Source of the DNA: a virus
Strand: one strand, 5' to 3'
DNA length: 64,000 nt
IMG/VR virus record: IMGVR_UViG_3300046373_000099
Location: 2,383 to 66,382 of that record
The notes under the pieces were generated by a model that saw only the letters and a list, made by a program, of their open reading frames with translations, ran no database searches and had not been told where the DNA came from. The position numbers and the translations under genes are program-made. This document shows, piece by piece, positions 32,668 to 62,936 of this stretch (position 1 is its first letter; the number at the start of each line of letters is the position of its first letter).

Positions 32668-33414
32668 TTATACCTTGGCAGTCACAAGGTCTCCTCGCTT
32701 CACATCGCCGATGCAATCCCGCAACGTAACAAGTGCCATATGTACGAGAGCCCGACCTGCACCCATAGCTCCAGCTCTGTTCGCAGTGCCGACCGAATTA
32801 CCGACCGCTTCTAGGGTCCGTCCATCAATGCACGCAAGCTCGAATGGTTCGCATAAATAGCCAAGAGCCGATTGCAGGCGAGATAGGTGCTGCTGCGCAT
32901 CCATCATATCATTTACTGGGCGATCGCCATTCCACGCCTTAGGAACGCGAACAGTATCGCGCTGCACATCTGTTTCCTCGTCTGCAAATGGCGGTACTTT
33001 TTTCCTTGCTGGAATGTCCACGTTTGCGGCGGTGGATTGTCGAACATGTTTCTGCACAATCCTTCCGTCTTCACGGACGTGAATATGCCGGTCTAGCGAC
33101 ATGCCATCTCGAAGGACGGCGTTTGACCCTCCCAACTTAGCCTCGCTCTTTGCTGTGTCGTATACCTTCCGGTACAACATAGCGTACTTAAGAAGTTCGG
33201 TGTTTCCCTCCTTGATGAGTGCCGTTGCCAAGGGCCAGGCAATGTTGTCATTGGCTGCCGTGCCGTCCCAGTCCTTTCCTTTCTGTGATCGCTTATGGAG
33301 TCTGACCTTTTGAGTATGAACGCCGCTTCTTTCTGATTCCGTGTAAATCATGCGAGATGGCAGGCCGGCTCCGTCGCCGGAGAGCGTTTCTTGAAGTTTG
33401 GCTCTCAATGTCAT
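32668..33414 (-). CDS. Putative late-gene regulator
   Basis: Last early gene before the late leader; C-terminal HTH-like segment (GRTLEAVG). Confidence 0.45.
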   Translation of the reverse strand: MTLRAKLQETLSGDGAGLPSRMIYTESERSGVHTQKVRLHKRSQKGKDWDGTAANDNIAWPLATALIKEGNTELLKYAMLYRKVYDTAKSEAKLGGSNAVLRDGMSLDRHIHVREDGRIVQKHVRQSTAANVDIPARKKVPPFADEETDVQRDTVRVPKAWNGDRPVNDMMDAQQHLSRLQSALGYLCEPFELACIDGRTLEAVGNSVGTANRAGAMGAGRALVHMALVTLRDCIGDVKRGDLVTAKV

Positions 33415-34073
33415 GCTGCATCCCCATAGATAAGTTCGATTGAATCCAATTCGGTCAATTTGGTGAAGATATGCTTGTGGAGTTTCCTAAGCACGCCAAC
33501 CTCCTTATTGCTGACATATGGGCGGTCGTTGCCAATCCCTCGCGAGGAAATATCTCGAACAAAACTCTCTGCGAATGGGATTATGTAATCAGGATAGGCG
33601 CGAACTAACCAATGGCAGAAATAAGACCACTGCTTATTTGAAGTACACTCATCGACTAAGCGGAACCTTTGAGCGGTTTTCTTGTCACGCCACCATGTGG
33701 GTTTAGGCTCATTGTCATTCGCGGCTTCAAGCGATTTTTCTTCATACCAACCGCAATCACCGTTATTCTTGACGACAAGATATTTTATCTCAAAGCCGGC
33801 GTTCAGTTTGTCTCGCTCACGAAGCGCCTGCCCCATTTCTCCGCCCTTCCCTTTTTCGAGGGTGAAGCCCTCCGACTTTACATCCACCCTGACGGTCTCG
33901 TCATTAATCCAGTCTATCGCGAGCAAGTCCGCCTTACCGTTGGGGGCGACGTTACGAAACACGTCAAACCCGGATGCAAGCAACCATGCTGTGGCTATGT
34001 GCTCACTGATTGCCCCCTTAACACCAGGGCTAACCTTCCTTCGCTGCCCTGACTTGGTTCTCGCAATGGCCAT
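33411..34073 (-). CDS. PD-(D/E)XK nuclease-domain protein
   Basis: GAISE..ADLLA..VRVDVKS. Confidence 0.65.
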   Translation of the reverse strand: MAIARTKSGQRRKVSPGVKGAISEHIATAWLLASGFDVFRNVAPNGKADLLAIDWINDETVRVDVKSEGFTLEKGKGGEMGQALRERDKLNAGFEIKYLVVKNNGDCGWYEEKSLEAANDNEPKPTWWRDKKTAQRFRLVDECTSNKQWSYFCHWLVRAYPDYIIPFAESFVRDISSRGIGNDRPYVSNKEVGVLRKLHKHIFTKLTELDSIELIYGDAA

Positions 34074-34110
34074 ACTAATTTCTCCTCCTCATGTGGTGTT
34101 GGTAATTTTC

Positions 34111-34141
34111 ACAATAGTTTATATTTACAAAATTGTCAAGG
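34111..34141 (-). promoter_or_regulatory. Repeated sigma70 promoter/operator, copy 2
   Basis: Identical 31-mer to 3556-3586. Confidence 0.85.
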
Positions 34142-34145
34142 TCTG

Positions 34146-34652
34146 CTATGCTGTCGCCCGCTGCTCTGCTAGCCATCCTCTTACCGTCTCTACCACCAAC
34201 CCCTCCGCCTCTTCCTCACTGGTCGCACGCAGCACCGCCTGACGCGTAAAGCCCATCCATGACAGCAATGCGTGCCGCTTCTTCTGCTCGGCGCTGACGG
34301 GCGTCTTTGCCGCCTTCATTTCGATCAGGCCCAGCTGTCCGCCTTGGATGTAGATGCGGATATCGTGCTCTCCTGGCATCAGGCCGGTTGCCTTCGCCTT
34401 CATCTGCTCCCGTGGGGATCGACGGGCCGAGTTGAAGTCGCCGGCCAACGTGAACTGGCCCTTTCCTGCCGACAGCGAATATTCCGGCATCGCACGCAAG
34501 GCTCGGATAGCGGCAGCCTGCAGAACCCATTCTTCCACGTCGGCCTCCCTCACAGTCACCTTCGTTTCGCCAGCCGCGTTGGTGGTGGTCTTGAGGATGA
34601 CGCGGGCGCCTTTGATTCTCGTCGTCTGCTGGGTTGTTCGTGTGCGGGCCAT
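34146..34652 (-). CDS. VRR-NUC nuclease
   Basis: GLMPGEHDI..LIEMKA..SAEQKK. Confidence 0.8.
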   Translation of the reverse strand: MARTRTTQQTTRIKGARVILKTTTNAAGETKVTVREADVEEWVLQAAAIRALRAMPEYSLSAGKGQFTLAGDFNSARRSPREQMKAKATGLMPGEHDIRIYIQGGQLGLIEMKAAKTPVSAEQKKRHALLSWMGFTRQAVLRATSEEEAEGLVVETVRGWLAEQRATA

Positions 34653-34659
34653 GGGGGTC

Positions 34660-61005: not shown

Positions 61006-61078
61006 ATCCCTTTGAGGCAAAGATTATAGCGTGATGGGGATAATAGACTAATCTGACAGATTGTGTTTCTATGCATCA

Positions 61079-61432
61079 ATGAAACGTCTCGCCACCCTTA
61101 TCTCAATCCTTGCGCTCTCAGGCTGCAACACAATTGAGAACCAATACGTTGATGCCACCGGCAAGCACGGTAGCGGGCAAACGACTTTCAGCGCGACGCT
61201 GTCCGATGGCAAGTTCAGCATTGCCGAAAAGTCCGGATCCTGCAGCGGCCAGTTCGATAGTTGGTCCAATGCCACTGTTGTCTTTCCAGTAACATGCACA
61301 AATGGAAAGTCGGGCTCGGTCGTCATGACCCGCCCGACTGCTAATGCTTCAATTATAGCCGGTGAAGGCACAATTCAGTTTGTCGGCGGAGAGACGCGCC
61401 GATTTGTCTTTGGTCCTAAACGGTTTCAGTAA
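61079..61432 (+). CDS. Lipoprotein next to attP (possible exclusion factor)
   Basis: MKRLATLISILALSGC lipobox. Confidence 0.7.
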   Translation: MKRLATLISILALSGCNTIENQYVDATGKHGSGQTTFSATLSDGKFSIAEKSGSCSGQFDSWSNATVVFPVTCTNGKSGSVVMTRPTANASIIAGEGTIQFVGGETRRFVFGPKRFQ

Positions 61433-61451
61433 ATATTACATGGAGGGCTGG

Positions 61452-61670
61452 ATGATGGGTTGGCTTCGGCGGAAGATGGAGAAATGGTCAATCGCGAACG
61501 AAGAAGCCGCCGAGCGGTCTAAGGCCCGACGGCTTCTTTTGGAAAGCACACAGAAGGAAATGATCGAAAACGAGAAGGCTATAGCGCGCGCTGACAAACT
61601 CCTTCTTGATGAAAAGTTCCGCAAGTTAGATGAGAAGATCAAAGCTGCAGAGAAAAAGGCAAAAGGCTAA
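61452..61670 (+). CDS. Small coiled-coil protein
   Basis: GGAGG RBS; charged helix. Confidence 0.5.
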   Translation: MMGWLRRKMEKWSIANEEAAERSKARRLLLESTQKEMIENEKAIARADKLLLDEKFRKLDEKIKAAEKKAKG

Positions 61671-62443
61671 GCCGCCCACCGCCGCACCTCCTGCTCGACT
61701 TCCGCATAGAGGTCCGTAACGCATCCGTCGTTCGTTACCTGGCCGTCAGATACACCGCAGCCAGCTTCCGACGCGTGCGCCCCAGCGATGCCACCACGGC
61801 CCGTAATCTTGATGATCTTGCCGCCAAGCGCGTGGATGGCTTCAGCCTCGTTCGGGAAGCGGCAGTCATCAACGACTACACGTCCGCCGCCCGCCAGGAC
61901 CATGTTTGCTTGTCGCACCCACAACTCAGCCCAGAAGTCTTGGCCGATGCAGTCGCGCCCCCATTCAGTGCCCAACGTCTGCATGGCATATCGCGGCGTT
62001 TTGAAATTCAACCAGGCGCAAGGCTCCTCCTTCAAATCTCCCTCAATTTGCTCCTGAGAAAAGCCCATGGCGGCCATGGCGGCTTTCAATGGCCCAGCAA
62101 AACGCACCCGCACATATCCATGATGCTCGACCAGATAGTTGGCCGCCGTTGACTTGCCGCTGCCAGCGGCGCCTGTGAGGGCGATCAAGCGCGGGTAGTT
62201 GTCATTGGCCGGCTTGCGACTCCAAGGCATCTCCCTACCTGATGTGGCCCCGTCAGTAGGTATCCAGCCGGCAATCTGCGGATAGACGACCGGCATAATA
62301 CCGGCCGGGAGCAAGATGCTTTCGTCTGGGTAGGCGTCGTCGGGCAGGTCGTGGATAAGCCCGATTGCTTCGCCGAGTCTACGAAGCGCCGGATCGATCT
62401 GCGGAACTGCTGTGAGATCGCCCCATGGGGTCCATTCGGTCAT
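61667..62443 (-). CDS. Deoxynucleoside monophosphate kinase
   Basis: GAAGSGKST, FAGPLK, MQTLGTEWGR, DCRFPNE, HASE. Confidence 0.88.
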   Translation of the reverse strand: MTEWTPWGDLTAVPQIDPALRRLGEAIGLIHDLPDDAYPDESILLPAGIMPVVYPQIAGWIPTDGATSGREMPWSRKPANDNYPRLIALTGAAGSGKSTAANYLVEHHGYVRVRFAGPLKAAMAAMGFSQEQIEGDLKEEPCAWLNFKTPRYAMQTLGTEWGRDCIGQDFWAELWVRQANMVLAGGGRVVVDDCRFPNEAEAIHALGGKIIKITGRGGIAGAHASEAGCGVSDGQVTNDGCVTDLYAEVEQEVRRWAA

Positions 62444-62757
62444 TGTGTCTCCTCCAGTGCTGCGGTGATGAGTTTCTGCCAGACTTGGTTGAATTTCTCG
62501 CGATACCCAGGCAGCCCGAGCGTGATATTGCCATCACCGCAAGAGAAGTCATCATAATAAACGGAAATCTCCTCGGCGGCTTCGTGCATGCCGTCCGTCG
62601 GCTCGCGCATCGCCTCGATTGCGGCGCGGGCCTTGATGCGGAAACCCTCCTTTTGGCTTTCGTGAACATCAGCCCACGGCATATCCCTTGTCGTGCTAAT
62701 TCCGTAAGGTTCGGTCTCGTAGATAGCCCGTGCCACCCGCTCAATCATAGTCGTCAC
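62440..62757 (-). CDS. Hypothetical protein
   Basis: MIERVARAI..ARAAIEAMREPT. Confidence 0.65.
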   Translation of the reverse strand: MTTMIERVARAIYETEPYGISTTRDMPWADVHESQKEGFRIKARAAIEAMREPTDGMHEAAEEISVYYDDFSCGDGNITLGLPGYREKFNQVWQKLITAALEETQ

Positions 62758-62936
62758 GCCGCTTCTCCAATCTCACGATACGCGACAATCACGCCGCCGT
62801 TGCCGTTGTCATTCGCCGGCGCACCCCACAGCCACTTGCGGGCCGAGGTGTCTTTGACTTCCTTGCCGCAGCGCATGCGGATATCCACTTGGCCGGTTGG
62901 CTGCTGGTCGGTGGTGTTCCATGGTTTCCAGGTCAT
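62754..62936 (-). CDS. Small protein with ANDN and C-terminal AA
   Basis: Coupled ORF. Confidence 0.55.
   Translation of the reverse strand: MTWKPWNTTDQQPTGQVDIRMRCGKEVKDTSARKWLWGAPANDNGNGGVIVAYREIGEAA

Follow-up and report, generated by a model that had tools for sequence, protein, structure and literature searches.

In Alphaproteobacteria the adaptor protein SspB reportedly reads the N-terminal part of the ssrA tag, in work ascribed to Lessner and to Chien, both in 2007. According to PMC8138137, a tag whose end is weakened and whose spacer is lengthened depends on SspB for its degradation, and the tag head by itself serves as a portable binding module; PMC9393093 states that in Caulobacter the deletion of sspB slows the decay of a protein bearing the tag AANDNFAEEFAVAA. 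Phages are known to exploit such signals as well. In the mycobacteriophages with integration-dependent immunity, according to PMC3694055, one or two regulators (repressor, integrase) bear a C-terminal tag, and its removal by integration acts as the switch. Here we describe a phage genome in which the head of the alphaproteobacterial tag, Ala-Asn-Asp-Asn (ANDN), recurs in proteins that the phage itself encodes. The stretch of DNA analysed, hereafter called the window, has 64,000 nt and comprises bases 2383-66382 of one 66,382-bp virus record with direct terminal repeats (IMG/VR record IMGVR_UViG_3300046373_000099). Positions below are those of the window.

The DNA of the replication region is about 70-73% identical to that of Rhizobium phage 16-3, RHph_X2_25, RHph_TM3_3_14B and two Sinorhizobium phages. 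Close relatives of the phage helicase were found in prophages of Brucella (formerly Ochrobactrum) pituitosa, Metarhizobium album, Rhizobium daejeonense, Agrobacterium tumefaciens and a Rhizobium sp. Because of these two kinds of similarity, the phage is, as judged by sequence comparison, a 16-3-like temperate phage of Rhizobiales. Its gene set (102 genes, 20,121 residues) was obtained with a simple caller of our own, not with a standard program; the C-termini depend only on the frames chosen, while starts and N-terminal distances are less certain.

A preliminary description of the window had listed 14 copies of ANDN in 12 open reading frames (ORFs), and a six-frame search together with the gene calls confirmed both numbers. 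Exactly 14 copies were found in the window, all on the minus strand, with none in the three plus-strand frames. Two extra copies lie in the 2.4 kb of the genome that precede the window. One of the proteins encoded there, of 421 residues, has the C-terminus AANDNQKMGVAA, and its ortholog in phage 16-3 is annotated as a DNA repair exonuclease. The whole genome thus holds 16 copies against 0.163 expected (Poisson probability about 1e-26), and 1000 within-protein shuffles gave a mean of 0.168 and a maximum of 3. ANDN is by far the most over-represented 4-mer of the genome; PAND and AAND, which rank next, represent this motif with a shift of one residue, and A or P precedes ANDN in 13 of the 16 copies. 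The copies of the window, together with one close variant, are as follows.

33244..33255, minus strand: ANDN at residue 54 of a 248-residue protein with no Pfam or PHROG match (ORF 32668-33414).
33711..33722, minus strand: ANDN at residue 118 of a 220-residue protein, phrog_5018 of unknown function, ending in ...DAA (ORF 33411-34073).
36166..36177, minus strand: ANDN at residue 377 of a 773-residue primase-polymerase/AAA_25 protein, ending in ...QAA (ORF 34984-37305).
37812..37823, minus strand: ANDN 13 residues from the C-terminus of a C5 cytosine methylase (ORF 37770-38996).
39437..39448, minus strand: ANDN at residue 258 of a 278-residue N6/N4 DNA methylase, ending in ...EAA (ORF 39383-40219).
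40454..40465, minus strand: ANDN at residue 80 of a 133-residue protein with no family match (ORF 40301-40702).
41766..41777, minus strand: ANDN at residue 27, near the N-terminus, of a 258-residue exonuclease, phrog_10477 (ORF 41079-41855).
42934..42969, minus strand: two ANDN, at residues 574 and 582, in the C-terminal tail of a 598-residue SF2 helicase (ORF 42892-44688).
48512..48523, minus strand: ANDN at residue 159, in the Pro/Ala-rich tail of a 187-residue DUF669/SSB-like protein ending in ...KKAA (ORF 48434-48997).
50969..51082, minus strand: two ANDN, at residues 56 and 90 of a 115-residue helix-turn-helix (HTH) protein ending in ...VNDYAMRVAA (ORF 50900-51247).
62198..62209, minus strand: ANDN at residue 79 of a 258-residue deoxynucleotide monophosphate kinase, ending in ...WAA (ORF 61667-62443).
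62805..62816, minus strand: ANDN at residue 41 of a 60-residue protein ending in ...GEAA (ORF 62754-62936).
57387..57422, plus strand: SNDNRERRVAA and stop codon, the C-terminus of a 76-residue protein and a look-alike of a whole tag with Ser in place of Ala (ORF 57192-57422).

The 12 carriers in the window belong to unrelated families and are concentrated in replication and recombination proteins. The term "proteome-wide", under which this mimicry had been announced, is too strong. ANDN is present in only about 14 of the 102 proteins, and the virion module, although it accounts for 42% of the residues, has none of the 15 copies that fall in called genes (binomial p 3e-4). Among the relatives, the virion proteins with ANDN are a portal, a capsid protein and a tape measure.

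We consider that the selection on ANDN works at the protein level, as had been proposed from the varying synonymous codons. Over the 16 copies, Ala is encoded by GCC in 11, GCG in 4 and GCA in 1, the first Asn by AAC in 9 and AAT in 7, Asp by GAC in 11 and GAT in 5, and the last Asn by AAC in 14 and AAT in 2; the DNA copies differ from each other only at third codon positions. The degenerate DNA word GCNAAYGAYAAY has 16 matches in the genome, all on the coding strand and in frame, with no out-of-frame or intergenic copy anywhere in the genome, and the reversed word, used as a control, has no match there. The 21+21-nt flanks of the 16 copies have a mean identity of 31%, so no cassette has been copied around the genome. 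It is the coding frame, the varying wobble position and the unrelated flanks together that point to the protein. A signal in the DNA itself, be it a strand-polar site, a target of a methylase or nuclease or a repeated cassette, with the peptide as its by-product, might be suspected from the location of all copies on one DNA strand and from the codons GCC (Ala) and AAC (last Asn), which are commoner in the motif than in the genome at large. We regard such a signal as scarcely credible: all 16 copies are in the coding frame with wobble-only variation and without out-of-frame or intergenic counterparts, their flanks are unrelated, and in the relatives the copies follow the gene strand, including the minus-strand genes of phage 16-3. 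The strand bias simply reflects gene orientation.

The ANDN copies had been described as lying mostly in linkers, and the domain boundaries bear this out. In the eight carriers with Pfam matches, every ANDN is outside the matched domains. The helicase, the two methylases, the DUF669 protein and the HTH protein all have it behind their domains. In the N6/N4 methylase, for example, it is in the tail behind the domain (26-226), in the HTH protein both copies follow the HTH (16-46), and in the primase it is in the linker between Prim-Pol (21-196) and AAA_25 (392-575). In the deoxynucleotide monophosphate kinase it is directly ahead of the P-loop. The DUF669 protein was also modelled with AlphaFold from an alignment of 31 sequences. 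Its core is modelled with confidence, at a predicted local distance difference test (pLDDT) score of 85-96. From about residue 151 onwards the model shows no secondary structure, and the block means of pLDDT are 61, 50, 46 and 52; the motif, at residues 159-162 of the protein, is in this tail. In the flanks of the motif, Pro is enriched 2.4-fold and Ala 1.6-fold, and Ile, Leu, Tyr and Cys are depleted.

In the ortholog alignments, ANDN is found at the same place in 36 of 57 comparisons, with changing flanks. The clearest case is the DUF669/SSB-like protein. Its 31 orthologs, down to 28% identity, share only 12 invariant columns, and three of these are the A, N and N of ANDN, the D being conserved to at least 90%; the tail around them is Pro/Ala-rich and otherwise variable in sequence and length. 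Each of the two helicase copies is retained in six of seven orthologs despite variable flanks. The copy of the N6/N4 methylase is kept in all five orthologs, four of which have a whole copy of the tag, e.g. AANDNHALAKVAA of the Agrobacterium prophage, and that of the kinase stands at the same place in both orthologs compared. ORF 62754-62936 keeps its copy in the sole ortholog found. Retention varies elsewhere: in the HTH protein the first copy is kept in five of six orthologs and the second in none of the six, in the exonuclease (ORF 41079-41855) one of five orthologs keeps ANDN and one other has ANDD, and the site in the C5 methylase reads AANT in the X2_25 ortholog. ANDN has also been gained in insertions specific to a lineage, as in the primase linker and at the exonuclease N-terminus, and at shifted spots of the same linker. 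The primase copy, for example, lies within an insertion that is missing from all five orthologs, one of which has a PANDN of its own nearby. As the motif appears in insertions and at shifted places of a linker, it must have been gained repeatedly and not merely inherited. A conserved island in disordered and fast-evolving sequence, with repeated independent gain, is what defines a short linear motif, and ANDN shows this pattern.

These data also bear on the view that ANDN has no function of its own and arises as a by-product of low-complexity linkers rich in Pro, Ala and Asn, or of the shared ancestry of a few domains. The Pro/Ala-rich flanks would suit this view, and several carriers are orthologs across the relatives, for which reason the counts in the relatives are not independent. 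We nevertheless judge it very improbable, given that shuffling within the same proteins yields 0.17 copies on average, that ANDN is invariant or nearly so in tails variable in both sequence and length, that it turns up in lineage-specific insertions and at shifted positions of the same linker, and that the 12 carriers in the window come from unrelated families.

Some other features of these carriers may be recorded here. In the C5 cytosine methylase (ORF 37770-38996), the first 169 residues match only positions 1-165 of the 324-position Pfam model, and the C-terminal part in the same frame is conserved in X2_25. The C-terminus of the DUF669 protein (48434-48460) forms a second conserved island, ...RPWGxK, with invariant P and W, after which KKAA or AA is appended in this phage and a few relatives. 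The C-terminus of the SF2 helicase (42892-42912), just downstream of the two ANDN, has an acidic tip, ...DDEIPF or ...DDEVPF, in all eight genomes. An acidic C-terminal tip is a feature of bacterial SSB, and by this resemblance the helicase may dock where SSB docks.

The preliminary description had proposed that ANDN be counted in phage and host proteomes. The host background was sampled from 400 kb of the chromosome of one related prophage's host (383 called genes, 116,963 residues), which contains a single ANDN against 0.62 expected. This corresponds to 0.009 per 1000 residues, compared with 0.80 in the phage. The motif is thus about 90 times denser in the phage, and its frequency differs from the host background. 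At the level of whole genomes, four host genomes (5.1-6.6 Mb) have 34-54 matches each to the ANDN DNA word on both strands. In one of them (G003), 19 of 38 matches lie in one 74-kb stretch that contains a prophage locus (L007); in another (G004), 13 of 34 lie in the stretch containing prophage locus L008, and one more match is the tmRNA (transfer-messenger RNA) gene itself. In a Rhizobium sp. contig (G005:C33:73287-76669), five ANDN DNA words occur within 3.4 kb on one strand; this stretch may be another element with the same motif habit.

The relatives follow the same trend as this phage. Phage 16-3 has 18 copies in six frames, 15 of them in called genes against 0.12 expected, and RHph_X2_25 has 20, with 17 in called genes against 0.16 expected. 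In five prophage loci, each about 21.7 kb long, there are 6, 6, 11, 6 and 8 copies. A larger set of 38 IMG/VR loci around helicase homologs (672,836 nt; three of them coincide in DNA with three genome loci) yields 252 copies in total, with at least three in 34 loci. In the same loci the comparison peptides ANDE, ANDD and ANNN number 12, 4 and 6, the reversed NDNA 33 and the variant DNDN 40. All counts over the relatives mix kin and are phylogenetically non-independent, several carriers being orthologs. A tblastn search with the 662-residue ORF 29436-31424 as a terminase query gave no useful set of unrelated alphaproteobacterial phages, and nine unrelated control phages were compared. The ANDN DNA word is absent from PBC5, 7-7-1, D3, lambda and RcapMu; one copy is found in L338C (110 kb), one in Brucella phage Tb, two in phiLM21 and three in RR1-A. 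D3 and lambda, the only controls from outside the Alphaproteobacteria, have no ANDN, ANDE or ANDD in their called genes. A bias imposed by the host was considered and is ruled out by the single ANDN in the 116,963 host residues and by the unrelated phages that infect Sinorhizobium, Rhizobium and Agrobacterium, which have 0-3 copies of the DNA word: an excess that the host imposes would be shared by such phages, and they lack it. From the genomes compared, the ANDN excess is a trait specific to this phage lineage.

What the motif resembles can be seen from the tags of the hosts. The tmRNA genes identified by ARAGORN in the five prophage hosts encode the tags ANDNNAKGYALAA, ANDNKAQGYALAA, ANDNNAKEYALAA (twice) and ANDNYAEARLAA. 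Their invariant parts are the head ANDN and the end Ala-Ala (AA), with 8-9 residues after ANDN; the premise that alphaproteobacterial tags begin with ANDN and end with AA therefore holds in all five. In Table 1 of PMC12493166, the Agrobacterium tag is the same as that given by ARAGORN, and the tags of E. coli and P. aeruginosa are ANDENYALAA and ANDDNYALAA, respectively. An SspB-family gene is present in all four hosts searched, and in three of them it is a few hundred bases from the tmRNA gene. In the B. pituitosa genome, the sspB and tmRNA genes are about 15 kb apart. Among solved structures, the host SspB-family protein matches those of Caulobacter SspB (2QAS, 2QAZ) and the Agrobacterium entry 2NYS. 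No SspB encoded by the phage was found in its genome, and no tmRNA or tRNA gene was found in the window. Since all copies of ANDN are encoded in phage ORFs and the window has no tmRNA gene, the phage ANDN is an encoded mimic and not a tag added by tmRNA. In M. album, two adjacent matches to the alpha_tmRNA family were observed (G002:C2:81635-82362; 254 and 172 bits), and an element that integrated at the tmRNA gene could have left such a duplication behind.

After ANDN, the phage proteins mostly have R, Q, V, E or H, and the host tags have N, K or Y followed by A. Across the prophages and their hosts, we did not see the residue after ANDN tracking the tag of the individual host. A complex of the substrate-binding domain of a host SspB (residues 1-125, from an alignment of 40 close homologs) with the last 48 residues of the DUF669 protein was predicted with a median score of 0.29 against a mark of 0.32; this score, from a single run without controls, speaks neither for nor against binding.

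It may be asked at this point whether ANDN docks to some other hub, such as the phage beta-clamp, sigma factors or another host protein, and resembles the tag in four residues by coincidence. The agreement extends over just four or five residues, the following residues differ from those of the host tags, motifs occur also near N-termini and in inter-domain linkers, and the trait belongs to one phage lineage and not to all phages of these hosts. Against this, the match covers exactly the invariant part of the five host tags. The alanine before the encoded tag is tmRNA's own, and the Ala preferred before the phage motif gives AANDN as on a tagged protein. ANDN is also linked to the other invariant part of the tag, the AA end, at a spacing like the native one, as described below. 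For the clamp in particular, the known clamp-binding motif is not like ANDN, and carriers such as kinases, methylases and the portal proteins of the relatives have no reason to bind it. On balance, we find another hub rather unlikely.

The preliminary description had also noticed that many of the ANDN proteins end in AA, and this was found for 7 of the 12 carriers in the window, 10 of which end in A. AA ends are in excess in the whole genome, with 20 of 102 proteins against about 1.3 expected by composition, and the next C-terminal dipeptide occurs three times. Between 32668 and 62936 they are found in 13 of 51 called genes. The host sample has 18 in 383 (4.7%; Fisher p 7e-6), two relatives have 19 in 98 and 27 in 104, and D3, RR1-A and 7-7-1 have 2-4%. 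The following AA ends occur without ANDN.

45077-45220, minus strand: 47-residue ORF ending in ...KVAA, adjoining a sigma-70-like ORF.
45217-45717, minus strand: sigma-70-like ORF ending in ...MVAA.
49046..49867, minus strand: Sak4-like annealing protein (AAA_24) ending in ...QDAA.
50601..50903, minus strand: 100-residue protein ending in ...KGAA.
56580..57164, plus strand: 194-residue protein ending in ...DMAA.

The two parts of the tag go together in the same proteins. In this phage, 8 of 13 ANDN proteins have an AA end compared with 12 of 88 others (p 4e-4). When eight genomes are pooled, the fractions are 38 of 74 and 66 of 382 (p 3e-9), and in the full set of 1307 distinct proteins encoded by the related loci, 122 of 248 and 229 of 1059. 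These p-values are too small because the proteins are related, but the direction is consistent. The position of the motif points the same way. Pooled over the relatives, 181 of 289 motifs lie within 30 residues of the C-terminus, while 41.8 are expected under uniform placement, and yet only 5 of the 289 are closer than 7 residues (the counts at distances 0 to 6 are 0, 0, 0, 0, 2, 1 and 2), followed by 21 at exactly 7 residues. A minimal spacer would be expected if one protein holds the head while another grips the end. There are 58 motifs at 7-10 residues from the end; 35 of these proteins end in AA and 54 in A. Ends that look like a whole tag are AANDNQKMGVAA in this phage, ANDNQEDEAEAA in the 16-3 portal and AANDNHALAKVAA in the Agrobacterium prophage methylase. 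The two tag-like ends pointed out earlier in the window, SNDNRERRVAA of ORF 57192-57422 and ...VNDYAMRVAA of ORF 50900-51247, are both present at the C-termini. Within this phage, tag-like spacing is confined to the 421-residue protein and the SNDN variant (7 residues each), and the remaining C-proximal ANDN are 13-25 residues from the end.

Other variants of the head had been listed for the clamp and for Xis. The clamp has VNDN at residue 141, in the gap separating Pfam matches to the second beta-clamp domain, probably by chance. DNDN occurs on the plus strand at 59271, in an ORF outside the called gene set that lies just upstream of and overlapping the 399-residue ORF 59447-60646; these two ORFs stand to each other as xis does to int in phage 16-3, and the DNDN ORF is, by this position, presumably the one that had been called Xis. 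A second DNDN is residue 4 of a 1022-residue protein (ORF 18651-21719). The presence of SNDN in ORF 57192-57422 and of VNDN in the clamp was thus upheld, with the qualification just given for the latter.

The mechanism that we favour, and hold to be somewhat probable from these sequence patterns, is that the ANDN head is bound by host SspB and the protein is passed on to ClpXP, with the AA end as the part that ClpXP engages, so that the protease sets the lifetime of the phage enzymes. Stepwise, [A/P]-A-N-D-N is a short linear motif that selection maintains in the exposed tails and linkers of about 14 non-virion proteins, most of which handle DNA; host SspB would bind the head and tether the carrier to ClpX; ClpX would engage the carrier's C-terminal Ala-Ala; and ClpXP would then set its lifetime. 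Nucleases, methylases, helicase and primase that have leaked or are no longer needed would be cleared, with a possible saturable threshold between lysogeny and lytic growth.

The same binding might serve another end, in that ANDN engages SspB and ClpX without destruction of the carriers. The carriers would then be decoys that saturate the adaptor, so that host tagged proteins, or one key phage protein, meet a different fate, or the dimeric SspB or the unfoldase ClpX would assemble or remodel the replication machinery. Many copies in abundant early proteins, the tandem copies in the helicase tail and in many DUF669 tails, the concentration of carriers in replication and recombination proteins, and the missing AA end in 5 of the 12 window carriers would all agree with this, as would the use of the head as a pure binding module in PMC8138137. 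Such a role does not need ANDN and AA to be linked in the same protein, nor does it need the scarcity of copies closer than 7 residues to the C-terminus or the whole-tag copies, and we consider it unlikely. Together with the other properties of the motif, its link to AA ends and its scarcity at fewer than 7 residues from the C-terminus agree better with delivery to ClpXP than with titration alone.

Several observations weigh against delivery to ClpXP and should be set beside those in its favour. Roughly one motif in three stands well away from the C-terminus or close to the N-terminus, and the AA end is missing from 5 of the 12 window carriers. The ANDN excess is missing from unrelated phages of the same host genera. 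The tags compared are those of the hosts of related prophages and not of this phage's own host. The residues after ANDN do not follow these tags, and the motif would bind weakly if the hosts' SspB needs more than the ANDN head. The copy in ORF 32668-33414 belongs to a strongly conserved block, DWDGxAANDNIAWPLATAL, in all four genomes and is kept in all three orthologs; with the conserved hydrophobic stretch after it, this copy may be part of the fold, unlike the others. Further points concern the AA ends. With the same caller they are found also in 8 of 60 genes of lambda, 8 of 71 of PBC5 and 9 of 80 of phiLM21, the lambda genes including some at the coordinates of B, bet, ninB, ninC and ninG. 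In this phage they occur in 9 of 23 genes with a 4-nt overlap of stop and start but in 11 of 78 others. That the AA ends come purely from such overlaps is only partly true, as the non-overlapping 11 of 78 still exceed the 17 of 362 of the host (p 0.0045).

The excess of AA ends is therefore real, yet it is less specific and weaker evidence than ANDN, because unrelated temperate phages including lambda show it and the overlaps inflate it. As a sign of tag mimicry the AA ends carry less weight than first claimed, with lambda, PBC5 and phiLM21 reaching 11-13%; they may reflect a wider phage habit or be partly an effect of the overlaps. As for the proposal of SspB-ClpXP turnover as a whole, what stands is a protein-level motif identical to the head of the tags of the related prophages' hosts, about 90 times denser than in a host chromosome sample, located in tails and linkers and linked to AA ends; what had to be scaled back is its proteome-wide extent and the weight placed on AA.

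A bolder form of the favoured mechanism, which we offer as rather doubtful, is that the 16-3-like lineage uses the four-residue copy of the tag as a portable label that puts dangerous early enzymes under one saturable adaptor-protease pair. This would act as a noise filter for the choice between lysis and lysogeny, whereby leaky expression in lysogens is erased and the burst at induction overwhelms SspB-ClpXP. Bolder still, dimeric SspB might be hijacked as a hub that gathers the ANDN-bearing replication proteins.

If ANDN binds SspB, this would be a clear case of short-linear-motif mimicry by a bacterial virus, in which the phage programs the stability of its own proteins through the quality-control label of the host. 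Unstable phage proteins in Alphaproteobacteria could be predicted by a sequence rule that asks for [A/P]ANDN in a loose segment, whether or not the protein has a terminal AA, a post-translational layer would be added to the models of the lysis-lysogeny switch, and natural tunable degron parts would become available for rhizobia and agrobacteria. The idea can be checked in the established system of Sinorhizobium meliloti and phage 16-3. The AA ends in lambda and other temperate phages suggest, moreover, a wider and little-noticed use of ClpX-type C-terminal signals by phages.

Viruses of eukaryotes are known to mimic short host motifs, which are gained repeatedly in disordered parts of unrelated proteins and conserved as islands. 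That mimicry differs from the present case in the domain of life and in the machinery involved. We know of no described case in a bacterial virus of short-linear-motif mimicry of this breadth, and a search of open-access papers and preprints, without their supplements, returned nothing on ANDN or mimicry of the tag head in phage proteins.

When compared with the native alphaproteobacterial ssrA tag, the phage motif has the same head, usually after Ala, and often shares the AA end. The native tag has 8-9 residues after ANDN, and the whole-tag peak of the phage lineage is at 7-10. Unlike the native tag, which trans-translation adds, the phage motif is part of the phage's own reading frames; it leaves out the middle of the tag, and many copies are internal, N-terminal or far from the end. 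A second comparison is with RseA, whose SspB-binding part is not the tag head. RseA(1-108), a natural substrate delivered by SspB to ClpXP and ending in ...VAA according to a table of PMC8138137, is similarly encoded in the genome and combines SspB with a C-terminal Ala-Ala; unlike the phage carriers, it is a host protein. The mycobacteriophages of PMC3694055 are alike in that a temperate phage hard-wires a degron for a host protease into its own proteins. Here, in contrast to them, there are about 14 mostly enzymatic carriers and not a repressor, and there is no hint of removal by integration, the attP not having been located. A bipartite design is also that of the engineered DAS+4 degrons of PMC8138137, with a head and a weak C-terminal ClpX signal separated by a spacer, and their head remains functional away from the native tag. 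They were constructed in the laboratory from the tag of E. coli or Caulobacter, whereas the phage would represent a natural, genome-wide use of the same arrangement.

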